A stretch of 61,161 nucleotides of DNA, taken from assembly GCA_963777155.1 (NCBI GenBank), contig CAVZPM010000013.1:1-61161 (forward strand), written 5' to 3'. The notes under the pieces are model-generated. The model worked only from the letters and a program-made list of their open reading frames with translations. It was not told the origin of the DNA and did no database searches. Positions 8,230-18,274 of this stretch are shown here, piece after piece. Source of the stretch: Candidatus Bathyarchaeota archaeon. Lineage in GTDB: Archaea; Thermoproteota; Bathyarchaeia; Bathyarchaeales; Bathycorpusculaceae. Within the stretch, counting starts at the first letter, position 1, and each line of letters opens with the position of its first letter. The position numbers and the translations under genes are program-made.

Positions 8230-8420
8230 TATTGCCGAGTAATACTCGACCGGTTTCGATTCATTGTTCAGAAGCAGTCGCCTTCAAAGAGATGATAAAA
8301 GAATCAAGCCTTTAAGCCCTTCTTTCGAATATTCATATTTTGGTAGGGTTTCACTACATATGTGGGTTATGGGTAAAGAACAAAAGCCACCTACTGACTT
8401 ATTTAATTAAAGGCATCAAG

Positions 8421-9917
8421 ATGAAAAATCAAATTCTGATTGATGGACGGTGGCAAGACTCACTATCTCAAGAAACATATACTAGGGTTAATCCTGCTAA
8501 CCCAGATGAGATCTTAGGGGATTTTCAGAAAGGGAACTCAGAGGACATGAAACATGCCATAGACGCTGCGGATGATGCCTTCCAAGCGTGGTCTGATACT
8601 CCTCCTACTGAGAGGGCAAAGTACTTGCTGAGGGCAGGAGAAATCTTGGAACAGCAGAAGCAGGAACTGTCTCTGATAATTACCAAGGAGATGGGAAAAA
8701 CTCTACGAGATTCCACCGGAGAGATTCAACATACAATAGATTTGGCACACTATGTCGCTGCTGAGGGTAGACGGTTGCTTGGAGAAACTTCCACCTCCGA
8801 GCAGAGAGGGGTTTTCAATTTTACCATGAAGCTACCGATAGGCGTTATAGGCTTGATTACCCCATGGAACTTTCCAATTTTTATAGCTGCGAGAAAGATT
8901 TTCTACTCACTCGTATGTGGAAACACAGTTGTCCTAAAACCATCTTCGGAGGCTCCGCAATGTGCAACAAAACTATTTGAAATTCTCCAAAAAACAGGCA
9001 TACCAGACGGGGTCATAAATTTTGTAACTGGGTCTGGCGAAGTAATTGGTAACACTCTGATAACAGATGACCGAGTTCGAATGATATCTTTCTGTGGGCA
9101 CAAAGATACAGGCGCTAAAATAATGAAGGGTGCGGGTCCAAAGCGTGTGAGCTTGGAGTTGGGTGGCAAGAATCCACTTATTATAATGGATGATGCCGAT
9201 GTAGGCCTTGCTGTAGCCGCTCTTGTTTGGGGTGGATATTCGACCACTGGACAGAGGTGTACAGCTTCCTCTAGAGTTATTGTTCATGAAAAGATAAAGG
9301 AAAAAGTCGAGAGAATTGCTGTTGAGAAAATAAGAAAACTCAGAATTGGAGATGGATTGGATCCGCAGACTGACATAGGTCCGTTGGTTAACCAGAAAGC
9401 ATTGAATAAAACCAAAGAATACTGCCAAATGGGCAAAGAAGAAGGCGCGAAACTGCTCACAGGTGGACAAGCACCCGAACAACTTAAAGGATGGTACTTT
9501 GAACCCACCCTTTTTACCAATTGCAAAGCGGATATGAGAATCTGCAAAGAGGAAATCTTTGGACCAGTCGTATCAATAATCTCGGCGAAGAATTTGGAGG
9601 AAGCCATTGAAATTGCTAATTCAGTGGATTATGGACTATCTTCAGCTATTTACACTGCCAGTATCGAAAGCGCTTTGGTTGCAATCAAGAAGCTTCAGGC
9701 AGGTCTAACCTACGTAAACCACCCGACGATTGGAAGTCAAGTGCATATGCCTTTTGGAGGGGTCAAATTCTCTGGAAACAACCGAGAAGGCGGCGCTGAA
9801 GGTATAAACGAGTTTACAGAACTAAAAACTGTCTGCATAAACTATCAAAATGACCAAGAATCGGTGAAGTCAAAAGCTCATAATAACTATAGAGATCTAT
9901 TCCAAGGAAAACCATAA
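8421..9917 (+). CDS. NAD(P)-dependent aldehyde dehydrogenase
   Basis: ITPWNFP, LELGGKNP, catalytic GQRCTA, EEIFGPV and PFGGVKFSG motifs; likely start MKNQILIDG. Confidence 0.95.
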   Translation: MKNQILIDGRWQDSLSQETYTRVNPANPDEILGDFQKGNSEDMKHAIDAADDAFQAWSDTPPTERAKYLLRAGEILEQQKQELSLIITKEMGKTLRDSTGEIQHTIDLAHYVAAEGRRLLGETSTSEQRGVFNFTMKLPIGVIGLITPWNFPIFIAARKIFYSLVCGNTVVLKPSSEAPQCATKLFEILQKTGIPDGVINFVTGSGEVIGNTLITDDRVRMISFCGHKDTGAKIMKGAGPKRVSLELGGKNPLIIMDDADVGLAVAALVWGGYSTTGQRCTASSRVIVHEKIKEKVERIAVEKIRKLRIGDGLDPQTDIGPLVNQKALNKTKEYCQMGKEEGAKLLTGGQAPEQLKGWYFEPTLFTNCKADMRICKEEIFGPVVSIISAKNLEEAIEIANSVDYGLSSAIYTASIESALVAIKKLQAGLTYVNHPTIGSQVHMPFGGVKFSGNNREGGAEGINEFTELKTVCINYQNDQESVKSKAHNNYRDLFQGKP

Positions 9918-9958
9918 AGTTCTGCTGCTTTAGCATACACTGAGTAGGCTTCACCTAA

Positions 9959-10612
9959 TTAGGAGAAGCTGTCCCCATATACGCTTCTGAATTTTTTGAA
10001 GGTACGAGCGCAATCTAGGCAGTCAAAACTGTAGAGTTTATTATCGATGGTTTCTATGATTGGTCTCTCGTTGATTTGTTTTGAACACATAGCACATATA
10101 ACTCCCTTTTTGCCTTGATTCTCCTCTTCTTGTCTTTGGGTCTTTGCTATTTGACCAGCGGGGAATTGGAACAGGTCTTTGTTTTGAAGCAGAATCCCAT
10201 GAGCCAATCGTAGAAGTTCTTCTTTGTTTTCAAAAGAGACTTGTTCTTGTCTGCCTAGATCTACCTTTTTGCCTTCTAGATCGAGAACGATTTTTCTTCC
10301 TAGGTCTCTGTGTCTAAAATAGAGGAATTTTTTGCCGCCGAATTCTCTTGCTAATCTGATTTCTTTGAGCACTTCAGCTGATAGGTTAAATCCGGGGGTA
10401 ATTAACAAAATGAAGACTTTGCTTTCAGACAATGCTTGGTCTCGAATTTGTATCCATTCTTCGACGCCATCAGTCATTTTTGGTATATCTTTGCTATCTA
10501 AAAATATGTGGTATCCAAGTTCTTCTAGACCTGATTTTAGGTGATCAGCGAAATCTTTGCCGCTGCTCTTTTTGTGGCATAGAAAAATGTCAAATGGTCT
10601 ATGATTACCCAT
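9959..10612 (-). CDS. TIR-domain protein with C-terminal TRASH/YHS metal-binding domain
   Basis: FDIFLCHKKSSGKDFADHL..IFLD and SAEVLKEIRLA (TIR); CAMC...YSFDCLDCARTF (TRASH). Confidence 0.8.
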   Translation of the reverse strand: MGNHRPFDIFLCHKKSSGKDFADHLKSGLEELGYHIFLDSKDIPKMTDGVEEWIQIRDQALSESKVFILLITPGFNLSAEVLKEIRLAREFGGKKFLYFRHRDLGRKIVLDLEGKKVDLGRQEQVSFENKEELLRLAHGILLQNKDLFQFPAGQIAKTQRQEEENQGKKGVICAMCSKQINERPIIETIDNKLYSFDCLDCARTFKKFRSVYGDSFS

Positions 10613-10657
10613 ATGTTACTATTAGTCTGTTTCGTTTTTAATACTATTGCTAGATTG

Positions 10658-11488
10658 CTAGGAGCCGTTTTTCTTGGTTGTTTCGCTCAATTTCTTTATG
10701 GCGTCTGCGATTTTTTCCAGTCTGGCTGAGAAGGGGTGGTTTGGCTGCCTGATTGAAAACAAGAACTCATGTCTACTAAACTGAATATCACAAAAGCAGG
10801 GAATACTTCCAACTACATCTGCGCCAACAACTCTCTCCAATTCACTTATCCAAGCTTTCTCGTCTTTGATCAGCATTGATTCTTCTTTTACAGTCTCACC
10901 AGGAACCTTGTTTAAGATAGCGTAGTATTTTGCACCATACCTACTGAGGGAATCATAGATGTCGATGATCATCTTGCGAGTTCCTTCAATATCCATATCG
11001 CTATCTTTTAGCAAAAGAAAGATGTAGTCAGACGTGGCTAGGGTGTTTATTGACCAATATCTGATGCCAGGGCTTGTATCCAAGAACAGGTAGTCAATTT
11101 TGAATTGATCAGCTAGTTCCTGTTTTGCTTTGATGAATCTTTTAACGGCTTCGATTTGCCATTTTGAATCGTGTTTTATATCGATCTCGTTTACGTCTTC
11201 TTTTCTGGAACTCGAAAAACCAACCATAAACTTGCCGTTTAGACCCAGCTCACTTGTTAGGTCGTAGACAACATCTGAAATCTTTGCTTGACCGCTGAGC
11301 AGATCATTAATAAAAGCATTTGGTTTTTTCTTAAAGTAAGAGCTTAGACTTGGAGCATACAAATCAAAATCAAGCAAAGCAACGTTAAACCCATTTTTTG
11401 CATACAATGCAGCCACGTTAGAGATTAAAGTAGTTTTGCCAGTACCGCCCTTGTAAGAATGAAAAGCAATTGTTTTTAGTGCTCCCAT
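10658..11488 (-). CDS. MinD/ParA family ATPase
   Basis: Deviant Walker A KGGTGKT; LLDFDLYAP, LFLDTSPG and ILNKV motifs. Confidence 0.9.
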   Translation of the reverse strand: MGALKTIAFHSYKGGTGKTTLISNVAALYAKNGFNVALLDFDLYAPSLSSYFKKKPNAFINDLLSGQAKISDVVYDLTSELGLNGKFMVGFSSSRKEDVNEIDIKHDSKWQIEAVKRFIKAKQELADQFKIDYLFLDTSPGIRYWSINTLATSDYIFLLLKDSDMDIEGTRKMIIDIYDSLSRYGAKYYAILNKVPGETVKEESMLIKDEKAWISELERVVGADVVGSIPCFCDIQFSRHEFLFSIRQPNHPFSARLEKIADAIKKLSETTKKNGS

Positions 11489-11761
11489 ATTAGATCTTTA
11501 TTATCCTAACTTTCTTTTATATTTTCTAAAATTCTTCCAATCTTATTCTTTATTATGTGCACTAATTAAGAGTAAAAAGAAAGTCTTGAGTTTGTTTCAT
11601 ATTATAGAATTGACAGTTAATTTTTTATATAACCTAATTTCAATTATGAAATAAGGAATAATTTGAATTCAAAGGTGTAAATAAGGTCAATTGTTTTTGC
11701 GCCTTCGGATTCTTTGCTGTACTTAAATAGATTTAGAAATGTGTTTATGGTGGGTTAAATA

Positions 11762-14700
11762 TTGGAGAGCAAAAAAAAGAAATATCCTGACAAAATAGAG
11801 CGAAGCGGTTTTTCTTTAACAAAATCTCAAAAAGAGTTTCTCATTCGCTTGAATCCAGTACTTCCATCAGTTTTAGTTCAAGAGTTTTTCGAAAAGCATA
11901 AACATGTTATCGAGATAAACTTCAAAAATGACGTTAAGAAATCACAGATGATAGTGGATTTCAACAAATCATCAGTCCATACAAAGTGGGTAACACGAGT
12001 CGTTGAAGATGAGAAATCAATTGACGAAATTATGCATGAGTTAGGAGTCGAAGAGGAAGTTAATTTCGTTTCACCTCTTTATTCTCGGGAAGATCTTAAG
12101 CGACCGAACGCATTCACCTTCATAGACCAATTGATTATCAGATTTCCCCAAGATACAAAAAAAGAGTATTTGCAAGAGATTTTCAAGGATTTGGGTGTAG
12201 AAGAAGTCCAAGGTCGACGTGGTGAGTTGGGGAAAGGATTGATGTTACTGCATCTAACAAATCCAAAAATACAGAATTGCTACGAAATCGCCAAAAAACT
12301 CACTAGTTTAGCTCCTTCAATCAATTACTGCGATGTCGATTGGATTCAGCTACATTCTGGTTTACATTTTATCCCTAACGACCCATTCTTTTGCAATCAA
12401 TGGAATCTGCGCAACATTGGCCAAACTATGCCTTATGGAGGCGACACTGCTACGACTGGATGCGATATCAACATTGTACCCGCATGGGATATAACACGTG
12501 GGAGTCCACTAGTAGTAATAGCAGTATGTGATACCGGTTGTGATCTTAAGCATCCAGATCTTATCGACAATTACGTTCAATCTGACCGTTGGTATAGTTC
12601 ATTAACTGGAACTAATAATCCTCAGGATAGTTTCGGCCATGGAACCTGCGTAGCTGGAGTTGCAGCAGCACGAGGAAACAATCAACAGGGAATAGCAGGC
12701 GTTAGCTTCAACTGTCGTATATTACCCATCCAGATGTATGCTCTTTACCTTACGAATGTTGCTGGCATCCCCTTTCTTGATTTTAATCATGAATCTCAAT
12801 CAGAGACTGTGAATGCGCTCAACCAAGCATTGAATAATCATGTCAAAATAATTAACATTAGTTGGGGGTGGGACCTGGAAGACGACGATGTTATCAAATC
12901 AAAACTTGAGGAGTGCTACCAGCATAAGATAGTTATTATTGCTTCAACTGGCGATAATAATCAAGAAGGGATCGCTTTTCCAGCATCACATAAGAATGTT
13001 ATTGCAGTCGGGGCAAGTGATCAAAATGACAATAGATGGTTAGGTAGCAATTTTGGGAAGGAGTTGAGTGTTGTTGCCCCTGGTCAATATTTATGGTCTA
13101 CGGACATTAGGGGGTTGAAAACTACTAATGATGCGGGCAACCCGGTTTTTTATAAGAATGGTTTCAATGACTCAATGGGAGGGGGTGATTGTGCAGGTGA
13201 TTATTTTGATGGTTTCGGAGGTACTTCAGGAGCGGTACCACATGTAGCTGGTTTGGCAGCTTTGATTCTATCCTACAATCCTACTCTTTCCCCAGCAGAT
13301 GTACGTAAAATAATAGAGGATAATGCTAAGGATCTTATGCCAGCGAGCAATATTCCAGGTTCAAAATGGGATAAGTACACAGGTTTTGGTCGAATAGATG
13401 CTGGAAAGACTATGCAAGATGTTGTGACAAACCATCCATTTCCACCACCTAATTCTGTTGCTGATGTTTACATTAGGGATTCGTTGACCGATGATGGTAC
13501 TCAGCCGTATGTTGATGATCCATTATGTTTCAGCCCCGACATTATTGTAAGAAAGGCACGGGTTTTAAATCCTCAGACAGATTTTGCCAACATCAGCGTC
13601 GATCCAGGAAGTGATAATGTAGAAATTGGCAATGACAATTACATATACCTCAGGGTGCATAACAAAGGGACTTTCAGCTCTGATATACATGCCAGAGTAT
13701 ATTATGCGCCTCTTTCCACAACGTGTTCCCCAGACAAATGGAAGATAATAGGACAGATTGATTTTTATAATGTCCCCGCATCCGGTTACCAAGTGTCCGA
13801 TGCTCTTATTTGGGAGAAAGTCCCTGATCCTTGTTCAGTTGGTCATTTTTGTATAATTGCTTCGATCGAAGGGTTTGGCGACCCACATCCTGACCCAGAA
13901 GCGATAAATACATCTAGTTACGCAGATTTTATCCGTAAACACAATAATATTAGTTACCGTAATGTCGTATTCGAAAATGCACTTCCAGACACTGTTATAC
14001 CGGTTAATTTCATAATTGGAGCCTTTTTAGGCATCAAAGAATTCGATCTGAGGATAAGAATGAAAAATCCAAAGAGAGCAGATATTCATTTGAATATTCC
14101 GAACTATGTTTATAGCAAATATACGAGTCTGGAAAACATCTCTAGAACCGAAGGCGCCTCAAAATATTTTTTGAGGCACAGGGTTGAGGAAGGAGAGAAT
14201 GCGCTAATAAAAGGATTTGTTATGCCTCAGAGTATTTCTGATCTAGCAAGACTTGAAATTAGAATCCCTAGTGATGCAGAACAAGATGAATTATACGAAA
14301 TAGCTATTGAACAGATATTTGAGGGTAAAGTAGTTGGAGATTTCACTGTAAAAACTAGAATTGTTGATCCTAAAAGAACGATGTTTATTGCAGTTCGAGA
14401 TAGTCGCTTCGTTCATAGAGCAAATTGCGAACATTTACCTAAAACGAATCATAATCTATGGATACCTTTCGGTACGCTAACGGATGCTCGAGCATCAGGC
14501 TATGATTTAGCACTTGATTGTTTAAATCAAGAATTTAGAGCTGTTGATGTGTCTTGGAGGCTGTCAAAGAAAGTCTTGAATTTCATAAACAACATTAACA
14601 GCGCAGAAGAATTGAATCAGACCGTGAAAGAAGCACTAAGAGGTTTAGTTACTCATAACGGCGAATTGATGACTCAAGGCAAATTCGAAATAGATATTGA

Positions 14701-14830
14701 TATTGCCAAGAAAATTTTGGAAGCTAGAGATAAAATTTGCAGATTTGAAAACATAACCCAGATAGAACAAATCGATGGAGTTGGAATCGACAAATTCATT
14801 GCTCTGGTTAATGCCGTTAAAGTAAAGTGA
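11762..14830 (+). CDS. Multidomain S8 (subtilisin-like) serine peptidase with C-terminal Ada-like metal-binding and helix-hairpin-helix segments
   Basis: Triad AVCDTG / GHGTCVAG / GGTSGAVPHVAG; DVYIRD...SPDI Ig-like domain; VHRANC...GYDLALDC; QIEQIDGVGIDKF; no hydrophobic signal peptide. Confidence 0.9.
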   Translation: MESKKKKYPDKIERSGFSLTKSQKEFLIRLNPVLPSVLVQEFFEKHKHVIEINFKNDVKKSQMIVDFNKSSVHTKWVTRVVEDEKSIDEIMHELGVEEEVNFVSPLYSREDLKRPNAFTFIDQLIIRFPQDTKKEYLQEIFKDLGVEEVQGRRGELGKGLMLLHLTNPKIQNCYEIAKKLTSLAPSINYCDVDWIQLHSGLHFIPNDPFFCNQWNLRNIGQTMPYGGDTATTGCDINIVPAWDITRGSPLVVIAVCDTGCDLKHPDLIDNYVQSDRWYSSLTGTNNPQDSFGHGTCVAGVAAARGNNQQGIAGVSFNCRILPIQMYALYLTNVAGIPFLDFNHESQSETVNALNQALNNHVKIINISWGWDLEDDDVIKSKLEECYQHKIVIIASTGDNNQEGIAFPASHKNVIAVGASDQNDNRWLGSNFGKELSVVAPGQYLWSTDIRGLKTTNDAGNPVFYKNGFNDSMGGGDCAGDYFDGFGGTSGAVPHVAGLAALILSYNPTLSPADVRKIIEDNAKDLMPASNIPGSKWDKYTGFGRIDAGKTMQDVVTNHPFPPPNSVADVYIRDSLTDDGTQPYVDDPLCFSPDIIVRKARVLNPQTDFANISVDPGSDNVEIGNDNYIYLRVHNKGTFSSDIHARVYYAPLSTTCSPDKWKIIGQIDFYNVPASGYQVSDALIWEKVPDPCSVGHFCIIASIEGFGDPHPDPEAINTSSYADFIRKHNNISYRNVVFENALPDTVIPVNFIIGAFLGIKEFDLRIRMKNPKRADIHLNIPNYVYSKYTSLENISRTEGASKYFLRHRVEEGENALIKGFVMPQSISDLARLEIRIPSDAEQDELYEIAIEQIFEGKVVGDFTVKTRIVDPKRTMFIAVRDSRFVHRANCEHLPKTNHNLWIPFGTLTDARASGYDLALDCLNQEFRAVDVSWRLSKKVLNFINNINSAEELNQTVKEALRGLVTHNGELMTQGKFEIDIDIAKKILEARDKICRFENITQIEQIDGVGIDKFIALVNAVKVK

Positions 14831-15056
14831 AGTTCAAAGGTTAATGTATATATTCTAAAAGCAAGTGAGTCTATACAATTCTCCTAAATATCAAGGGTGT
14901 CATTATTGTCTTTTCTTAAATCTATCAAGTATGAGTGGTTTTTTTGATATTTTATTAAAAGGTTCAATATAATTATCTGCTTTTTCCGATTATAATAATT
15001 AACAAATTTAAAATACTAATTCTGATTATAATTATAGTGCCAAATTTCAAAGGAGA

Positions 15057-15293
15057 ATGTGTGTAATGGACGAAAAGGTTAAGGAAATATCTGAAAGGAT
15101 CTACCGACGATCGGAATATATGAATTGCCTAATTGCACATAGAGAAAAAGCGGTGAAAGCTATACTTGAAAGAGACCTTTGTGCCCTCTGGGAGATCTTT
15201 GATGAATGCAAGGTTCCCTGTAGAGATCGATGGGATATCGTAGAATTCATAATGGAAAAAGCAAAAGATCCACGTGGACCTCACTTCTGGTAG
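15057..15293 (+). CDS. Small Cys-containing peptide ending in Trp; candidate prenylated-peptide precursor
   Basis: Own AT-rich promoter region (tttaaaa near 15007) and AGGAGA RBS at 15051-15056 that favours ATG 15066 (75 aa); ends KDPRGPHFW-stop. Confidence 0.7.
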   Translation: MCVMDEKVKEISERIYRRSEYMNCLIAHREKAVKAILERDLCALWEIFDECKVPCRDRWDIVEFIMEKAKDPRGPHFW

Positions 15294-16306
15294 GGAAACA
15301 TGTCTTTTCGGATGCTTTGAATTTCAGTTAATGATTGATTAATCATTAACTCCAATTCTTTTTTTGCTGGAGTTGAACCAAGTTCAGATATTCTATTTAG
15401 CGCTTTTTTGGTATTAGCCTCAACAGTATTATACACATATTCGTAGGCGCCGGTTTCAAATCCATAATAAATTAGCTTCACGGCGTCTTCACGTGTTATT
15501 TTGGATTTGTTTATTATGCTTTTGATTTCTGCAAAGGCTTGTTTTGAGGCTTTGGCTGAATAAATGATTGTTAGAGGTAAACTTTCATATTTTACTCGAT
15601 GAATAAGATTATTTTCCAAATTGAAGGAATCTTGCAGTTCTTCGCGTAAAAAAATATTGAAGGCAAACATTCTAGCAAAGTCCGTTAAAGCCTCGATTTC
15701 GTCTGGGGTTCCATTTCCTAAAATGGAGCCAATACACGCGCAAGCTCCAGCGTCAGAGGTAAACTTCCAAAGATACTGCAGTTGATAGTCTATGTCAACA
15801 TCGAGGTTCTTTCTGCAATACACTTCCATAAACTCACCCTCATATATTTCAAAGATGAACTCTTTGAGTGTTTTGATTATCGCGCAGTATTTATTTTGGG
15901 AGATTTTGTTGTTGAAGACTTCAATACCAGTTAATAACCCTTTTAGGAGAAGTAAATCCCCTGCAAGTAGCGCTTTATCTAGTCCCTTTTCTCCAAAGAC
16001 TGTATTCTGTTTGTTGTAGTGTTTGTTGACTGATCTATCTATAATGTCATCATGGATCGCCATTCCGGCTACTAGCAAACTCATCACTACGCCCGCTTCT
16101 TCTATTGTGTCTGGGTCCCCTCCAACAGCTTCGCACGCCAGAGAAATTAGGGCTGGCCTGTGGGGTTCTTTCCAATAAGCCTTTACAAAGGACATAATTG
16201 AGAGTAGTTCTGAGTTATTGAGTCCGGATGAAGTCTGTTCTCCAAATTTTTTTAGAATTCTCTCAACTATTGCTTTTTGGGAAAGAGAGCTGTCCTTTGT
16301 TAGCAT
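15281..16306 (-). CDS. Polyprenyl synthetase-fold (class I isoprenoid) enzyme with degenerate second Asp-rich motif
   Basis: First motif IHDDIID, ALLAGDLLL and GEFME present; second motif reads IFLREELQD. Confidence 0.85.
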   Translation of the reverse strand: MLTKDSSLSQKAIVERILKKFGEQTSSGLNNSELLSIMSFVKAYWKEPHRPALISLACEAVGGDPDTIEEAGVVMSLLVAGMAIHDDIIDRSVNKHYNKQNTVFGEKGLDKALLAGDLLLLKGLLTGIEVFNNKISQNKYCAIIKTLKEFIFEIYEGEFMEVYCRKNLDVDIDYQLQYLWKFTSDAGACACIGSILGNGTPDEIEALTDFARMFAFNIFLREELQDSFNLENNLIHRVKYESLPLTIIYSAKASKQAFAEIKSIINKSKITREDAVKLIYYGFETGAYEYVYNTVEANTKKALNRISELGSTPAKKELELMINQSLTEIQSIRKDMFPYQK

Positions 16307-16370
16307 TTCAAATTAACCTGCTTCTATATTTATTGCAGGTACTTAATTTGAATTTTTTTGCCAATCAAAG

Positions 16371-16883
16371 TTGATGATCAGGAGGCGTCAAGTGGTATTA
16401 CCACAAGTTATAAAAGCCAAAACATTGAAATCACAAATTGTACCATTTGATTCCAAAAGAAGGTTGAATAGAATTACAGATTTAAGTAGTGGCAAGGTTA
16501 AGCTGGCAATACTCTGGTTTTTTGTAGTGGTTACTAACTTGGCAATTGTAACGCTTACCTTTGTAGCCCCGGGGGTAATTGATGACATAAGAGGAGGCCA
16601 TGTGTTAGGCGCTCAAATTACACCAGATTTATTGTTATTGATCGCTTTGACTTATTTTTTGGTTCCAGCAGTTCTAGCTGTCTCATCAATTTTGTTGAAG
16701 GATTCTATTAACCGCTGGATCAATTTGGCAGGGGGCATCCTTTACGTTGTTTTTGTGCTCAATGAATTGGTTTCTAATATCATAAAAATGTCATATATCT
16801 TTGGGATGTTTCTGCAGGCATCGACAATTTTCGTTCTCGTCTTGATTATTTGGTATTCATGGAACTTGACTGGAAAGCCATAG
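16371..16883 (+). CDS. Four-TM membrane protein, DUF6326-like (true start probably downstream)
   Basis: KVKLAILW...APGVIDDIRGG...INRWINL pattern, four hydrophobic helices. Confidence 0.6.
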   Translation: MMIRRRQVVLPQVIKAKTLKSQIVPFDSKRRLNRITDLSSGKVKLAILWFFVVVTNLAIVTLTFVAPGVIDDIRGGHVLGAQITPDLLLLIALTYFLVPAVLAVSSILLKDSINRWINLAGGILYVVFVLNELVSNIIKMSYIFGMFLQASTIFVLVLIIWYSWNLTGKP

Positions 16884-17050
16884 AAATCATAAACCCTCGG
16901 CTGTTCATCGAATTGGATGATCAAGCTTAGTTTTTGTTTCTATAGAAAATATTGACTCCGTTTTAGTTCTAACTGTAAAAACAAGCTATAGCAAGACTTT
17001 TATGTATTCTCTATGCAATTCTAATTTGGAGAAATCTGTGAACCATCATC

Positions 17051-18274
17051 TTGGGATCCACTATGAGAGGTAATCACAGTTATAGAAGTATAATTGCATC
17101 TGCACTCTTATTCTCTACAACTCTATCTTGGTTTTTCATTTTCAATAGCTATCTATTAAACTCGATGCTCCAGAATTCAGGCGAAGGCACGTTTTTTACT
17201 TCCTTGGGCAATTTGCTTTTCTATAGTTTTGCAGTTGTCTTTGGAATAATTGGCAGTATCCTCTCTGAACGAGTAGAGAGAACGAAATTCCTTAGGTTGT
17301 GGGCAGCTTTCGGATTCTTTACCACAATAGTCATAGTAGTTTTTCAAGGACCCTATTTTGCCTTATTCCTGAGTGCACTCTTGGGAATTTCGTTTGGATT
17401 AGGTTTTCCAACTGTCCAAGCCTTCTTTACGGAAGCTACAACGTATGAATCGAGGGGTAAGGTTGCTGGAATCACTGCGATCTTGACTCTTACAATCGCT
17501 GTTGTTGTTTTGTTGCTGATTACTTTCTTGCAGCTTACAATTGTTAGTATAGTCTTGATTTGTGCTTGTCTTAAGGCTGCTAGTTTTCCTGCTTTGGCTA
17601 AACATATAAACAAAGAAGAGGGCTTGAGGATGGCTTGGAAGCCAGTTTTATTTTCTCCAGATTTTATTTCTTATGCGACTCCTTGGCTGATATTTAACCT
17701 TGCTAACGGACTTGGCTTCTTTGCAAGATTTCCTGAAGAGATTCAATCCGTTGCGTCACTTGGGCCAGTACTTGAGTTTCTGGCGGCTATTTTTGCAGCT
17801 GTCGTTGGTGGGATTCTTGCCGACCGTAATGGACGAAAGCAACCATTGATTTTTGGTCTTATTGTTTTGGGAACGGGTTATGCGTTTTTCGGAGTTTTAT
17901 CCTCAGCAGAAACCTATCTTATCTACTCTCTTGTTGATGGTGCAGCTTGGGGTTTACTCGTCGTTACTTACATGCAAGTAATCTTGGGAGATCTATCTTC
18001 ACGTTCAGGTGTACTCAAAGAACGTTTCTTTGCTCTTGGGGGTATTATGATACCTTTCCTTACACGTTCAATCTTTCAGGCAATTCAAGCAATAACAGGA
18101 CTAACTATTGCTGCAAACTATCTCTATACAATATTATGTTTTCTGATTTTCGTATCTATTATTCCGGTTTGGCGAGCTGCAGAGACTTTACCGGATTCAA
18201 TAACTAGAGAGAGAAAAATGCGCGAACACATCGATAAGGTTGGAAAACTTGTCGATGAATCAAAGAAAAAATAA
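17051..18274 (+). CDS. MFS transporter
   Basis: About 12 TM helices; GSILSERVERTK and GILADRNGRKQ MFS motif A. Confidence 0.85.
   Translation: MGSTMRGNHSYRSIIASALLFSTTLSWFFIFNSYLLNSMLQNSGEGTFFTSLGNLLFYSFAVVFGIIGSILSERVERTKFLRLWAAFGFFTTIVIVVFQGPYFALFLSALLGISFGLGFPTVQAFFTEATTYESRGKVAGITAILTLTIAVVVLLLITFLQLTIVSIVLICACLKAASFPALAKHINKEEGLRMAWKPVLFSPDFISYATPWLIFNLANGLGFFARFPEEIQSVASLGPVLEFLAAIFAAVVGGILADRNGRKQPLIFGLIVLGTGYAFFGVLSSAETYLIYSLVDGAAWGLLVVTYMQVILGDLSSRSGVLKERFFALGGIMIPFLTRSIFQAIQAITGLTIAANYLYTILCFLIFVSIIPVWRAAETLPDSITRERKMREHIDKVGKLVDESKKK

Follow-up and report, generated by a model that had tools for sequence, protein, structure and literature searches.

A candidate module for tryptophan lipidation and export of a ribosomal peptide in Bathyarchaeia

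The small gene and its convergent neighbour

We analyzed a stretch of 61,161 nucleotides (contig CAVZPM010000013.1, hereafter the window) from a Candidatus Bathyarchaeota genome of 39 contigs (2.29 Mb, completeness 90.6%), in which an earlier note, made from the sequence alone, had proposed an archaeal gene cluster for a prenylated peptide of the ComQ/ComX kind. The core of the proposed cluster is a gene for a short protein with tryptophan as its last residue; the 3' end of this gene runs into that of a polyprenyl-synthase homolog (PT, used throughout for this homolog and its relatives), with a protease, a membrane protein and a major facilitator superfamily (MFS) transporter around the pair (Table 1). 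All five open reading frames (ORFs) were recovered where the earlier note had placed them, including the tail-to-tail overlap. The 75-aa form of the small protein is also entry P0012 in a public protein library. The description of the block as AT-rich is weakly true: its GC fraction is 0.33–0.42 over 11–19 kb versus ~0.42 for the whole window, and equally low stretches are present elsewhere.

Table 1. Coordinates in the window of the small gene, the prenyl-synthase homolog and the surrounding genes
Feature	Position	Strand	Evidence
S8 subtilase, 1022 aa	11762-14830	+	PF00082 3.7e-47, 161.5 bits, residues 251-536 (above gathering score)
Small protein, candidate precursor, 78 aa, C-terminus DPRGPHFW	15057-15293	+	ORF list
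Same small protein, 75 aa, second ATG start	15066-15293	+	GGAG ~10 nt upstream
PT, 341 aa	15281-16306	-	PF00348 polyprenyl_synt 3.6e-12, 46.5 bits vs cut-off 27
13-bp tail-to-tail overlap of small gene 3' end and PT 3' end	15281-15293	.	ORF coordinates
170-aa membrane protein, four hydrophobic segments	16371-16883	+	DUF6326 1.6e-4, 22.4 bits, below cut-off 24
MFS transporter, 407 aa, candidate exporter	17051-18274	+	PF07690 MFS_1 3.3e-10, 39.8 bits (above gathering score)
ParA/MinD-type P-loop ATPase	10658-11488	-	AAA_31 4e-16; CbiA 3.4e-11
TIR-domain protein, C-terminal TRASH-like zinc motif	9959-10612	-	TIR_2 1.5e-10; Arc_trans_TRASH 3.3e-5, below cut-off

A single-sequence search with the window peptide found one weak relative, encoded directly against a PT homolog. 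With a three-member profile, 15 copies were found in 13 of 120 genomes of the genus. PT linkage holds in 14 of these 15 loci, and in 13 of them the small ORF sits between PT and MFS homologs, on the opposite strand, with its stop codon a few bases from that of PT. The window keeps the convergent junction with PT, but here MFS lies on the far side of PT. A 42-member profile searched against 401 Bathyarchaeia genomes gave 20 matches in 17 genomes; 14 of these were new, and every one of the 14 new loci has a convergent PT homolog within ~135 bp. Overall, 28 of 29 distinct Bathyarchaeia loci have the small gene set convergently against a PT homolog, a recurrence that places the arrangement far beyond chance, even though the related loci are kin and the counts therefore overstate the number of independent events. 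Junctions as tight as that in the window occur in related loci, and the arrangement holds while peptide identity drops to 10–25%.

An MFS homolog stands beside PT in all eight of the first related loci, in all 14 non-window loci of the genus and in most loci of a wider set; the transporter is the conserved third member of the module and a candidate exporter. Further loci were located with a five-member PT alignment (a single-enzyme query gave none, and an 11-member alignment was too diverse). Named contigs with the same PT family are nearly all labelled Candidatus Bathyarchaeia or Bathyarchaeota, and the family is present in a minority of genomes only. The recurrence of Trp-terminal small ORFs and MFS genes beside PT homologs, which the earlier note had proposed as a check, is thus borne out.

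The frame of the small ORF is intact in 29 loci at 10–55% identity. Across 30 codons compared between two relatives, synonymous changes outnumber non-synonymous ones (nine versus three), which argues that the reading frame is under coding constraint; these and the other synonymous counts, the counts of Trp ends, the catalytic residues of the S8 protease and the hydrophobic segments were all read by eye. On these comparisons the small ORF is a real, conserved gene. Contigs 100% identical to positions 15081-15268 and 15165-15360, that is, to the peptide gene and its junction with PT, occur in three metatranscriptome runs from two studies, two of these runs being apparently the same data set submitted under separate entries. 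The remainder of the PT gene is not covered by these RNA-library contigs, and almost all of the stretch is covered by a DNA run. Because RNA libraries can contain DNA, the contigs give a weak hint that the peptide gene is transcribed.

Peptide, enzyme and sister loci

Among 1.84 billion representative proteins, a profile search picked out 118 at E ≤ 1e-3, nearly all of 56–106 aa. We examined 114 of them, excluding four long multi-stretch proteins (P0053, P0087, P0113 and P0114). Trp is the terminal residue in 54 of the 114 and lies within the last seven residues in 102. Among the remaining 12, seven carry Tyr at the Trp position (six as K-Y-P and one with a ..PIYG end), four have Trp followed by a longer extension, and in one, GW repeats are followed by a further domain. 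Only two columns of a 42-member alignment are nearly invariant, and the Trp column is one of them. Two sub-types can be told apart: one ends in [Q/K]-[W/Y]-P plus 0–5 residues, and the other, which includes the window peptide, usually ends exactly at Trp. The nearest homologs of the window peptide end in GPQFW, GGPHWW and RCHFW. A terminal-Trp peptide with a verified adjacent PT is found in the window and in L136 (..PGGW), L143 (..GDIIW), L155 (..NPIW) and L160 (..GQIW).

AlphaFold2 predicted four helices for the window peptide (residues 3–69, pLDDT ~89), followed by a flexible nine-residue tail, KDPRGPHFW (pLDDT 54), in which Trp comes last. For the helical domain no counterpart was found among known folds or leader families. 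The window peptide has no Pfam or NCBIfam match; 15 family members searched against Pfam at E ≤ 10 gave nothing beyond noise, and 42 searched against NCBIfam matched no leader family. A profile search of the PDB and a Foldseek search of the small protein returned nothing, and there was no usable match in the ESM Atlas. Known leader families of peptides that are ribosomally synthesized and modified after translation (NHLP, Nif11 and ComX PF05952) are matched by none of its Pfam or NCBIfam profile comparisons, and a resemblance of the helical domain to Nif11 or NHLP was rejected as unsupported by Pfam, NCBIfam, the PDB profile search and Foldseek.

Two unusual family members were noted in passing. 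P0033 (220 aa) joins the N-terminal half of a PT (PF00348, 3.1e-5) to a peptide-family C-terminus, ..QKWPDEA, and could stem from a chimeric assembly or gene call. In P0105 (306 aa), the peptide N-domain and GW repeats are followed by ~200 residues without a Pfam match. An 86-aa convergent ORF in L040 (..RWWNYIP) was considered as a further member and dropped, its alignment with the family being unconvincing.

The AlphaFold2 model of the window PT has an all-alpha fold, that of trans-isoprenyl diphosphate synthases (trans-IPPS; pLDDT 93.5). Foldseek returned 544 PDB matches at E ≤ 1e-3, all of them IPPS-fold among the matches listed; the top match was the geranylgeranyl diphosphate (GGPP) synthase (GGPPS) of Pyrococcus horikoshii (1wy0, template modeling (TM) score 0.80), and the indole prenyltransferase Ord1 (9v4h) stood at rank 27 with a TM score of 0.75. 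This fold does not separate peptide prenyltransferases from ordinary synthases. The best sequence-profile match was again the P. horikoshii GGPPS (1WY0, E 3.6e-41), and all Pfam and NCBIfam matches of the window PT are synthase models, none of them specific to ComQ. The best NCBIfam model is IdsA, with 81 bits versus a cut-off of 468, and no NCBIfam equivalog cut-off is reached. Two further canonical isoprenyl diphosphate synthase (IDS) paralogs in the genome score higher to IdsA (187 and 160 bits, from partial sequences, versus 81), and so by score the window PT is an accessory paralog.

The first Asp-rich motif of the window PT is intact, D86-D87-I-I-D90, and D86, D87 and D90 are invariant in 29 homologs. 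A degenerate second motif, which the earlier note gives for ComQ, is seen in part: the window PT has EELQD rather than DDxxD, which is still acidic, and the pseudo-motif of ComQ-type enzymes is not present. The residue three positions before EELQD is Phe in the window PT, and relatives have R, I, S or A there (register from the 1wy0 alignment). The GKR motif, which we take to be the basic residues of the isopentenyl diphosphate (IPP) site, appears in the alignment to be replaced by W-K-E-P-H-R. Against archaeal GGPPS, the window PT has other residues for the FQ that precedes the second motif, and of the RRG after the first a single Lys remains.

From alignments read by eye, the related enzymes were assigned to three groups. 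Group A PTs are paired with K[W/Y]P peptides; their second motif is lost to xDxx[V/A/K], their GD motif has become GG, and the Arg of the RP motif is lost. Group A' PTs, which include that of the window, are paired with terminal-Trp peptides and keep an acidic second motif, (D/E)(D/E)xxD. Common to groups A and A', and missing from group B, are an inserted residue and an invariant Asn just past the second motif. Group B is widespread and keeps (D/E)(D/E)xxD; its PT and MFS genes are on the same strand, separated by a gap of mostly 150–280 bp and up to ~730 bp.

Group B loci have no 75-aa ORF. On the strand opposite PT, ~20–100 bp beyond its stop, they carry a conserved DNA motif, TGT[A/T]GAACAnATATACAGG, with exact-core matches at that position in 20 distinct loci. 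A mini-ORF of 12–18 aa, convergent with PT, follows the motif in 19 of these 20 loci, which were picked for carrying the motif; L073 lacks it. The mini-ORFs begin with Met and a Lys/Arg-rich stretch, often followed by P-[V/T]-R, and have Trp 0–3 residues before the stop; across the 19 translations the only invariant columns are Met1 and Trp. In 18 codons compared between two related mini-ORF loci, seven changes are synonymous and five non-synonymous. Three further loci without the exact motif were inspected: a Baldrarchaeota contig encodes a mini-ORF product MRKRKPRPFRFRWW and a Hydrothermarchaeota contig MAKKKKTPRIPVRAWR, and in the Methanomassiliicoccaceae locus (L060) we saw no MFS and no convincing mini-ORF. 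A mini-ORF with near-terminal Trp is thus present in 21 of the 23 sister loci examined. The last part of the mini-ORF runs antisense to PT's own C-terminal extension in L037 and L043, and the Lys-rich part may in part reflect a T-rich terminator on the other strand. Common to all three peptide architectures are a Trp at or near the C-terminus and a position against the 3' end of PT.

Mini-ORF examples are L037:9214-9252(-), L043:1231-1269(-), L054:6908-6964(-) and L039:9408-9461(-), with 15 more loci; further mini-ORF contigs are L071:1715-1846(-) and L042:951-1289(-). The motif, seen for example at L054:6976-6986(-), L045:6944-6954(-) and L038:9079-9089(-), lies just upstream of the mini-ORF start and may be a promoter or operator; it is absent upstream of the 75-aa gene of the window. 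Upstream of PT, sister loci also carry a divergent pair of small genes that have, by eye, the look of PadR-type regulators (L037:7237-7635(-)/7869-8216(+); L038:7001-7396(-)/7630-8022(+); L036:7585-7992(-)/8222-8551(+)).

The genome of the window has a second PT-MFS locus of this kind, on contig C10 (L039). Its PT (8408-9400, +) and MFS gene (9857-11203, +) flank a 17-aa mini-ORF (9408-9461, -) whose product ends in ..VVFTW. Directly after MFS on this contig comes a radical-SAM/SPASM gene (11229-12359, +; Radical_SAM 7.9e-10, SPASM 2.8e-3), an order also seen in L041. Radical-SAM/SPASM enzymes are a type typical of peptide maturases.

Known systems and competing explanations

PalQ of Paenibacillus alvei prenylates the C-terminal Trp of an ~80-aa NHLP-type precursor (PMC10853753). 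As at the window, an enzyme of the IDS superfamily there lies beside a precursor of about 80 residues with a conserved, folded leader and a C-terminal Trp (PMC10853753); the PalX test peptide ends in ..RRFFW and the window peptide in ..GPHFW. PalQ needs a strictly terminal Trp and prefers GW or GGW ends, and some archaeal relatives of the window peptide end in ..PGGW, ..LGGW and ..GSGGW. The second acidic motif is kept in PalQ (its first Asp), as it is in the window PT, so the pseudo-motif is not universal among the known enzymes. By contrast, PalQ and PalX come from a bacterial host and use an NHLP-type leader, whereas the archaeal small protein matches none of the leader families; the PalQ cluster has a histidine kinase and none was seen among the neighbours scanned here; a Gln that is conserved in PalQ upstream of the second motif is missing from the window PT; and the archaeal module differs in its convergent genes and in the presence of MFS.

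ComQ of Bacillus subtilis and StheQ of Sphaerobacter prenylate a Trp 2–4 residues from the end of 52–73-aa precursors (PMC4008528; bioRxiv 10.64898/2026.08.29.745113). They share with the window PT the trans-IPPS fold and an intact first Asp-rich motif, and ComQ/ComX and StheQ/StheX, like the archaeal pair, have an adjacent short ORF with Trp a few residues from the C-terminus. StheX is ordered over residues 1–59 and ends in a disordered Trp tail (bioRxiv 10.64898/2026.08.29.745113), as does the model of the window peptide. The pseudo-motif NDXXX of ComQ and StheQ (bioRxiv 10.64898/2026.08.29.745113) resembles the xDxx[V/A/K] of group A but not the EELQD of the window. In ComQXPA loci the genes all run on one strand and include those for a kinase and a response regulator; the window has convergent genes, and neither regulator was seen among the neighbours scanned. 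The archaeal PTs further differ from ComQ and StheQ in scoring best to archaeal GGPPS and IdsA, in lacking the conserved Gln (absent from all three PT groups in the alignments, yet common to ComQ, ChrPC, PalQ and Ord1; PMC13290415), and in being paired with MFS for transport.

With archaeal short-chain synthases (1WY0 GGPPS and IdsA) the window PT shares the DDxxD first motif and has its best sequence and fold match, and it falls far below the IdsA equivalog cut-off. An archaeal short-chain IDS is likely its evolutionary source. Of the earlier comparison with ComQ, the IPPS fold, the DDIID motif and the adjacent Trp-ended ORF stand, while the Gln and the pseudo-motif are missing; by the sequence features given in the literature, the window PT is not a member of the ComQ family, though it is built on the same scaffold. 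On the alignments, it probably arose independently, from a GGPPS-like gene of archaea.

A 2014 census placed ComQXPA-like loci in Firmicutes only (PMC4008528), and a 2026 preprint extends the ComQ-type system to Chloroflexi (bioRxiv 10.64898/2026.08.29.745113). In line with the earlier note, which knew of no described archaeal system of this kind, we found none in a literature search to which subscription-only papers and supplementary files were external. The word 'archaea' is absent from the PalQ, StheQ and census papers, and the review (PMC13290415) has it only for an unrelated lipidation.

Collectively, these comparisons make it reasonably probable, if far from assured, that the three genes form a module that lipidates a ribosomal peptide on Trp and exports it, an archaeal analogue of ComQ/ComX, PalQ/PalX and StheQ/StheX with an independent origin. 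The 75-aa product would fold into a four-helix, leader-like domain with a floppy, Trp-ended tail of nine residues. PT would bind a prenyl diphosphate through DDIID and Mg2+, with farnesyl diphosphate or GGPP supplied by the canonical synthases of the genome, and the indole of the terminal Trp would act as acceptor in place of IPP condensation. MFS would export the product, and the S8 protease next to the small gene, which this locus alone has, may cut off the helical domain. What was observed is the genes, their conserved convergent arrangement, the near-invariant Trp and the predicted folds; prenyl transfer, donor length, any cleavage, export and the role of the product (signal, antimicrobial or membrane anchor) are inferred.

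Several observations weigh against such a module. The best sequence and fold matches of PT are ordinary GGPP and polyprenyl synthases, its acidic EELQD could still permit metal binding and IPP condensation, and the Gln of the bacterial enzymes is absent. The peptide gene is on the strand opposite PT, unlike in most comQ-comX pairs. One locus (G071) has the peptide, MFS and ParA but no PT. Seven family members carry Tyr for Trp, and the trans-IDS-like enzymes characterised so far are all Trp-specific (PMC13290415). One peptide-linked PT (L148:1694-2692(-), genome G244) has a degenerate first motif, NNMMD for DDxxD, and this copy, if its sequence is right, may be unable to bind prenyl diphosphate. 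Lastly, since the loci compared are kin, the linkage counts exceed their independent support.

In one alternative, PT elongates prenyl diphosphate chains, as an ordinary or a specialised synthase, or forms terpenes; MFS handles its lipid product, and the Trp-tailed proteins are not substrates but could be regulators, pseudo-substrates or membrane-interface peptides acting on the transporter. This would fit PT's place in PF00348, with GGPPS and IdsA matching it best, the two acidic motifs, which the window's clade and the mini-ORF clade largely retain, and the G071 locus with peptide and MFS but no PT; cationic Trp-ended micro-peptides could bind membranes unmodified. We nevertheless consider it unlikely. 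It leaves unexplained why a Trp at or near the C-terminus should be the most conserved residue in three unrelated peptide architectures, always placed against the 3' end of PT; all NCBIfam scores are far below equivalog cut-offs; the genome already has two better IDS paralogs; and in four bacterial precedents the same pairing turned out to mean Trp prenylation.

A different fate for the product, which we regard as improbable, is that a prenylated terminal Trp anchors the intact 75-aa protein to the membrane, analogous to eukaryotic CaaX prenylation, rather than marking a peptide that is cleaved and secreted. A confidently folded four-helix N-domain (pLDDT ~89) that is kept across 118 representative clusters, in a module with no conserved protease, would suit such an anchor. 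However, an exporter-type MFS gene is adjacent in all eight first related loci and in all 14 non-window loci, the sister loci encode peptides of 12–18 aa with no domain to anchor, and an S8 protease lies next door in the window. Folded leaders, those of the NHLP and StheX types, are also found on modified peptides in bacteria. Finally, one could see in the small ORF no gene at all but a reading frame that arose by chance in AT-rich spacer DNA, and its lack of any Pfam, NCBIfam or PDB family match and of a usable Atlas match might be read this way. The comparisons leave this idea as good as refuted, given 118 homologous representatives of similar size, a frame intact in 29 loci with mostly synonymous substitutions, a confident fold prediction, a ribosome-binding-like GGAG and identical contigs in RNA libraries of two studies.

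Returning to Trp lipidation and export, a wider proposal is conceivable, which we hold tentatively: archaea may have independently turned a GGPP-synthase paralog into a peptide Trp prenyltransferase, in a cassette widespread in Bathyarchaeia and extending to at least two other archaeal lineages, whose substrates would range from leaderless 12–18-aa micro-peptides to 65–100-aa proteins with a new helical leader. Peptide Trp prenylation by IDS-fold enzymes is known from few bacteria only (ComQ, PalQ, ChrPC and StheQ), and the archaeal enzyme would be a clean case of convergent recruitment from a GGPP synthase. For modified peptides, the leaderless cationic micro-peptides would then be some of the smallest ribosomally made precursors. 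The products would be archaeal prenylated lipopeptides, acting as cell-to-cell signals or membrane-active antimicrobials and drawing on the isoprenoid pool of the membrane lipids. Bathyarchaeia abound in sediments and soils and have hardly been brought into culture; the module would offer a first handle on archaeal secreted lipopeptides or peptide signalling. Peptide engineering would also gain new lipidation enzymes, with C20 donors and very short peptides lacking a leader as possible substrates.

Neighbouring genes

The subtilase lies upstream of the small gene on the same strand. Its catalytic Asp, His and Ser are seen in the translation and no signal peptide is visible by eye, in agreement with its earlier description as signal-less. 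It is absent from every other locus checked. In 60 relatives it has no ortholog; the catalytic domain alone finds matches there, at ~35% identity and never beside PT. Neither the N-terminal 238 aa (11762-12475) nor the C-terminal 476 aa (13400-14830) has a match in the 60 relatives; the sole Pfam match of these two regions at E ≤ 0.01 is a sub-cut-off HHH_3 (helix-hairpin-helix). A role as the conserved maturase of the module was rejected, as the protease is absent from other loci and has no ortholog in the 60 relatives; from its position, it may have been recruited as a leader protease at the window locus. The four-segment membrane protein has no homolog in the eight related loci and is likewise specific to the window. 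Of the proposed set of precursor, prenyltransferase, protease and exporter, the precursor, PT and MFS are thus conserved, but S8 and the membrane protein are found in the window only.

The neighbours between 9.9 and 19 kb encode the TIR, ParA, S8, four-segment membrane and MFS proteins and CBS proteins. No histidine kinase or response regulator was found among these scanned neighbours, and the suggestion of a quorum-sensing system is left without a sensor kinase in this interval.

Homologs of the ParA/MinD-type ATPase lie beside the module in six of the eight related loci (72% identical in L034) and in many wider loci, often with a MarR-like winged-helix gene (L035:7991-8434). The TIR-TRASH neighbour is confined to the closest loci, with a 61% identical copy in L034 and fragments in L077. 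The ParA/TIR region spans 9959-11488(-) in the window, L034:11036-12607(+) and L077:8788-10132(+). L034 and L077 have PT first, followed by the peptide gene on the opposite strand and then by MFS, ParA and TIR, and the window looks like a rearrangement of this order in which S8 has taken the place of MFS and MFS has moved across PT. The closest named relative locus is L077:5864-10132, whose PT segment is 52% identical to that of the window. The coding sequences of its PT, ParA and TIR are broken over several frames, which could result from long-read indel errors or mark a decaying copy.

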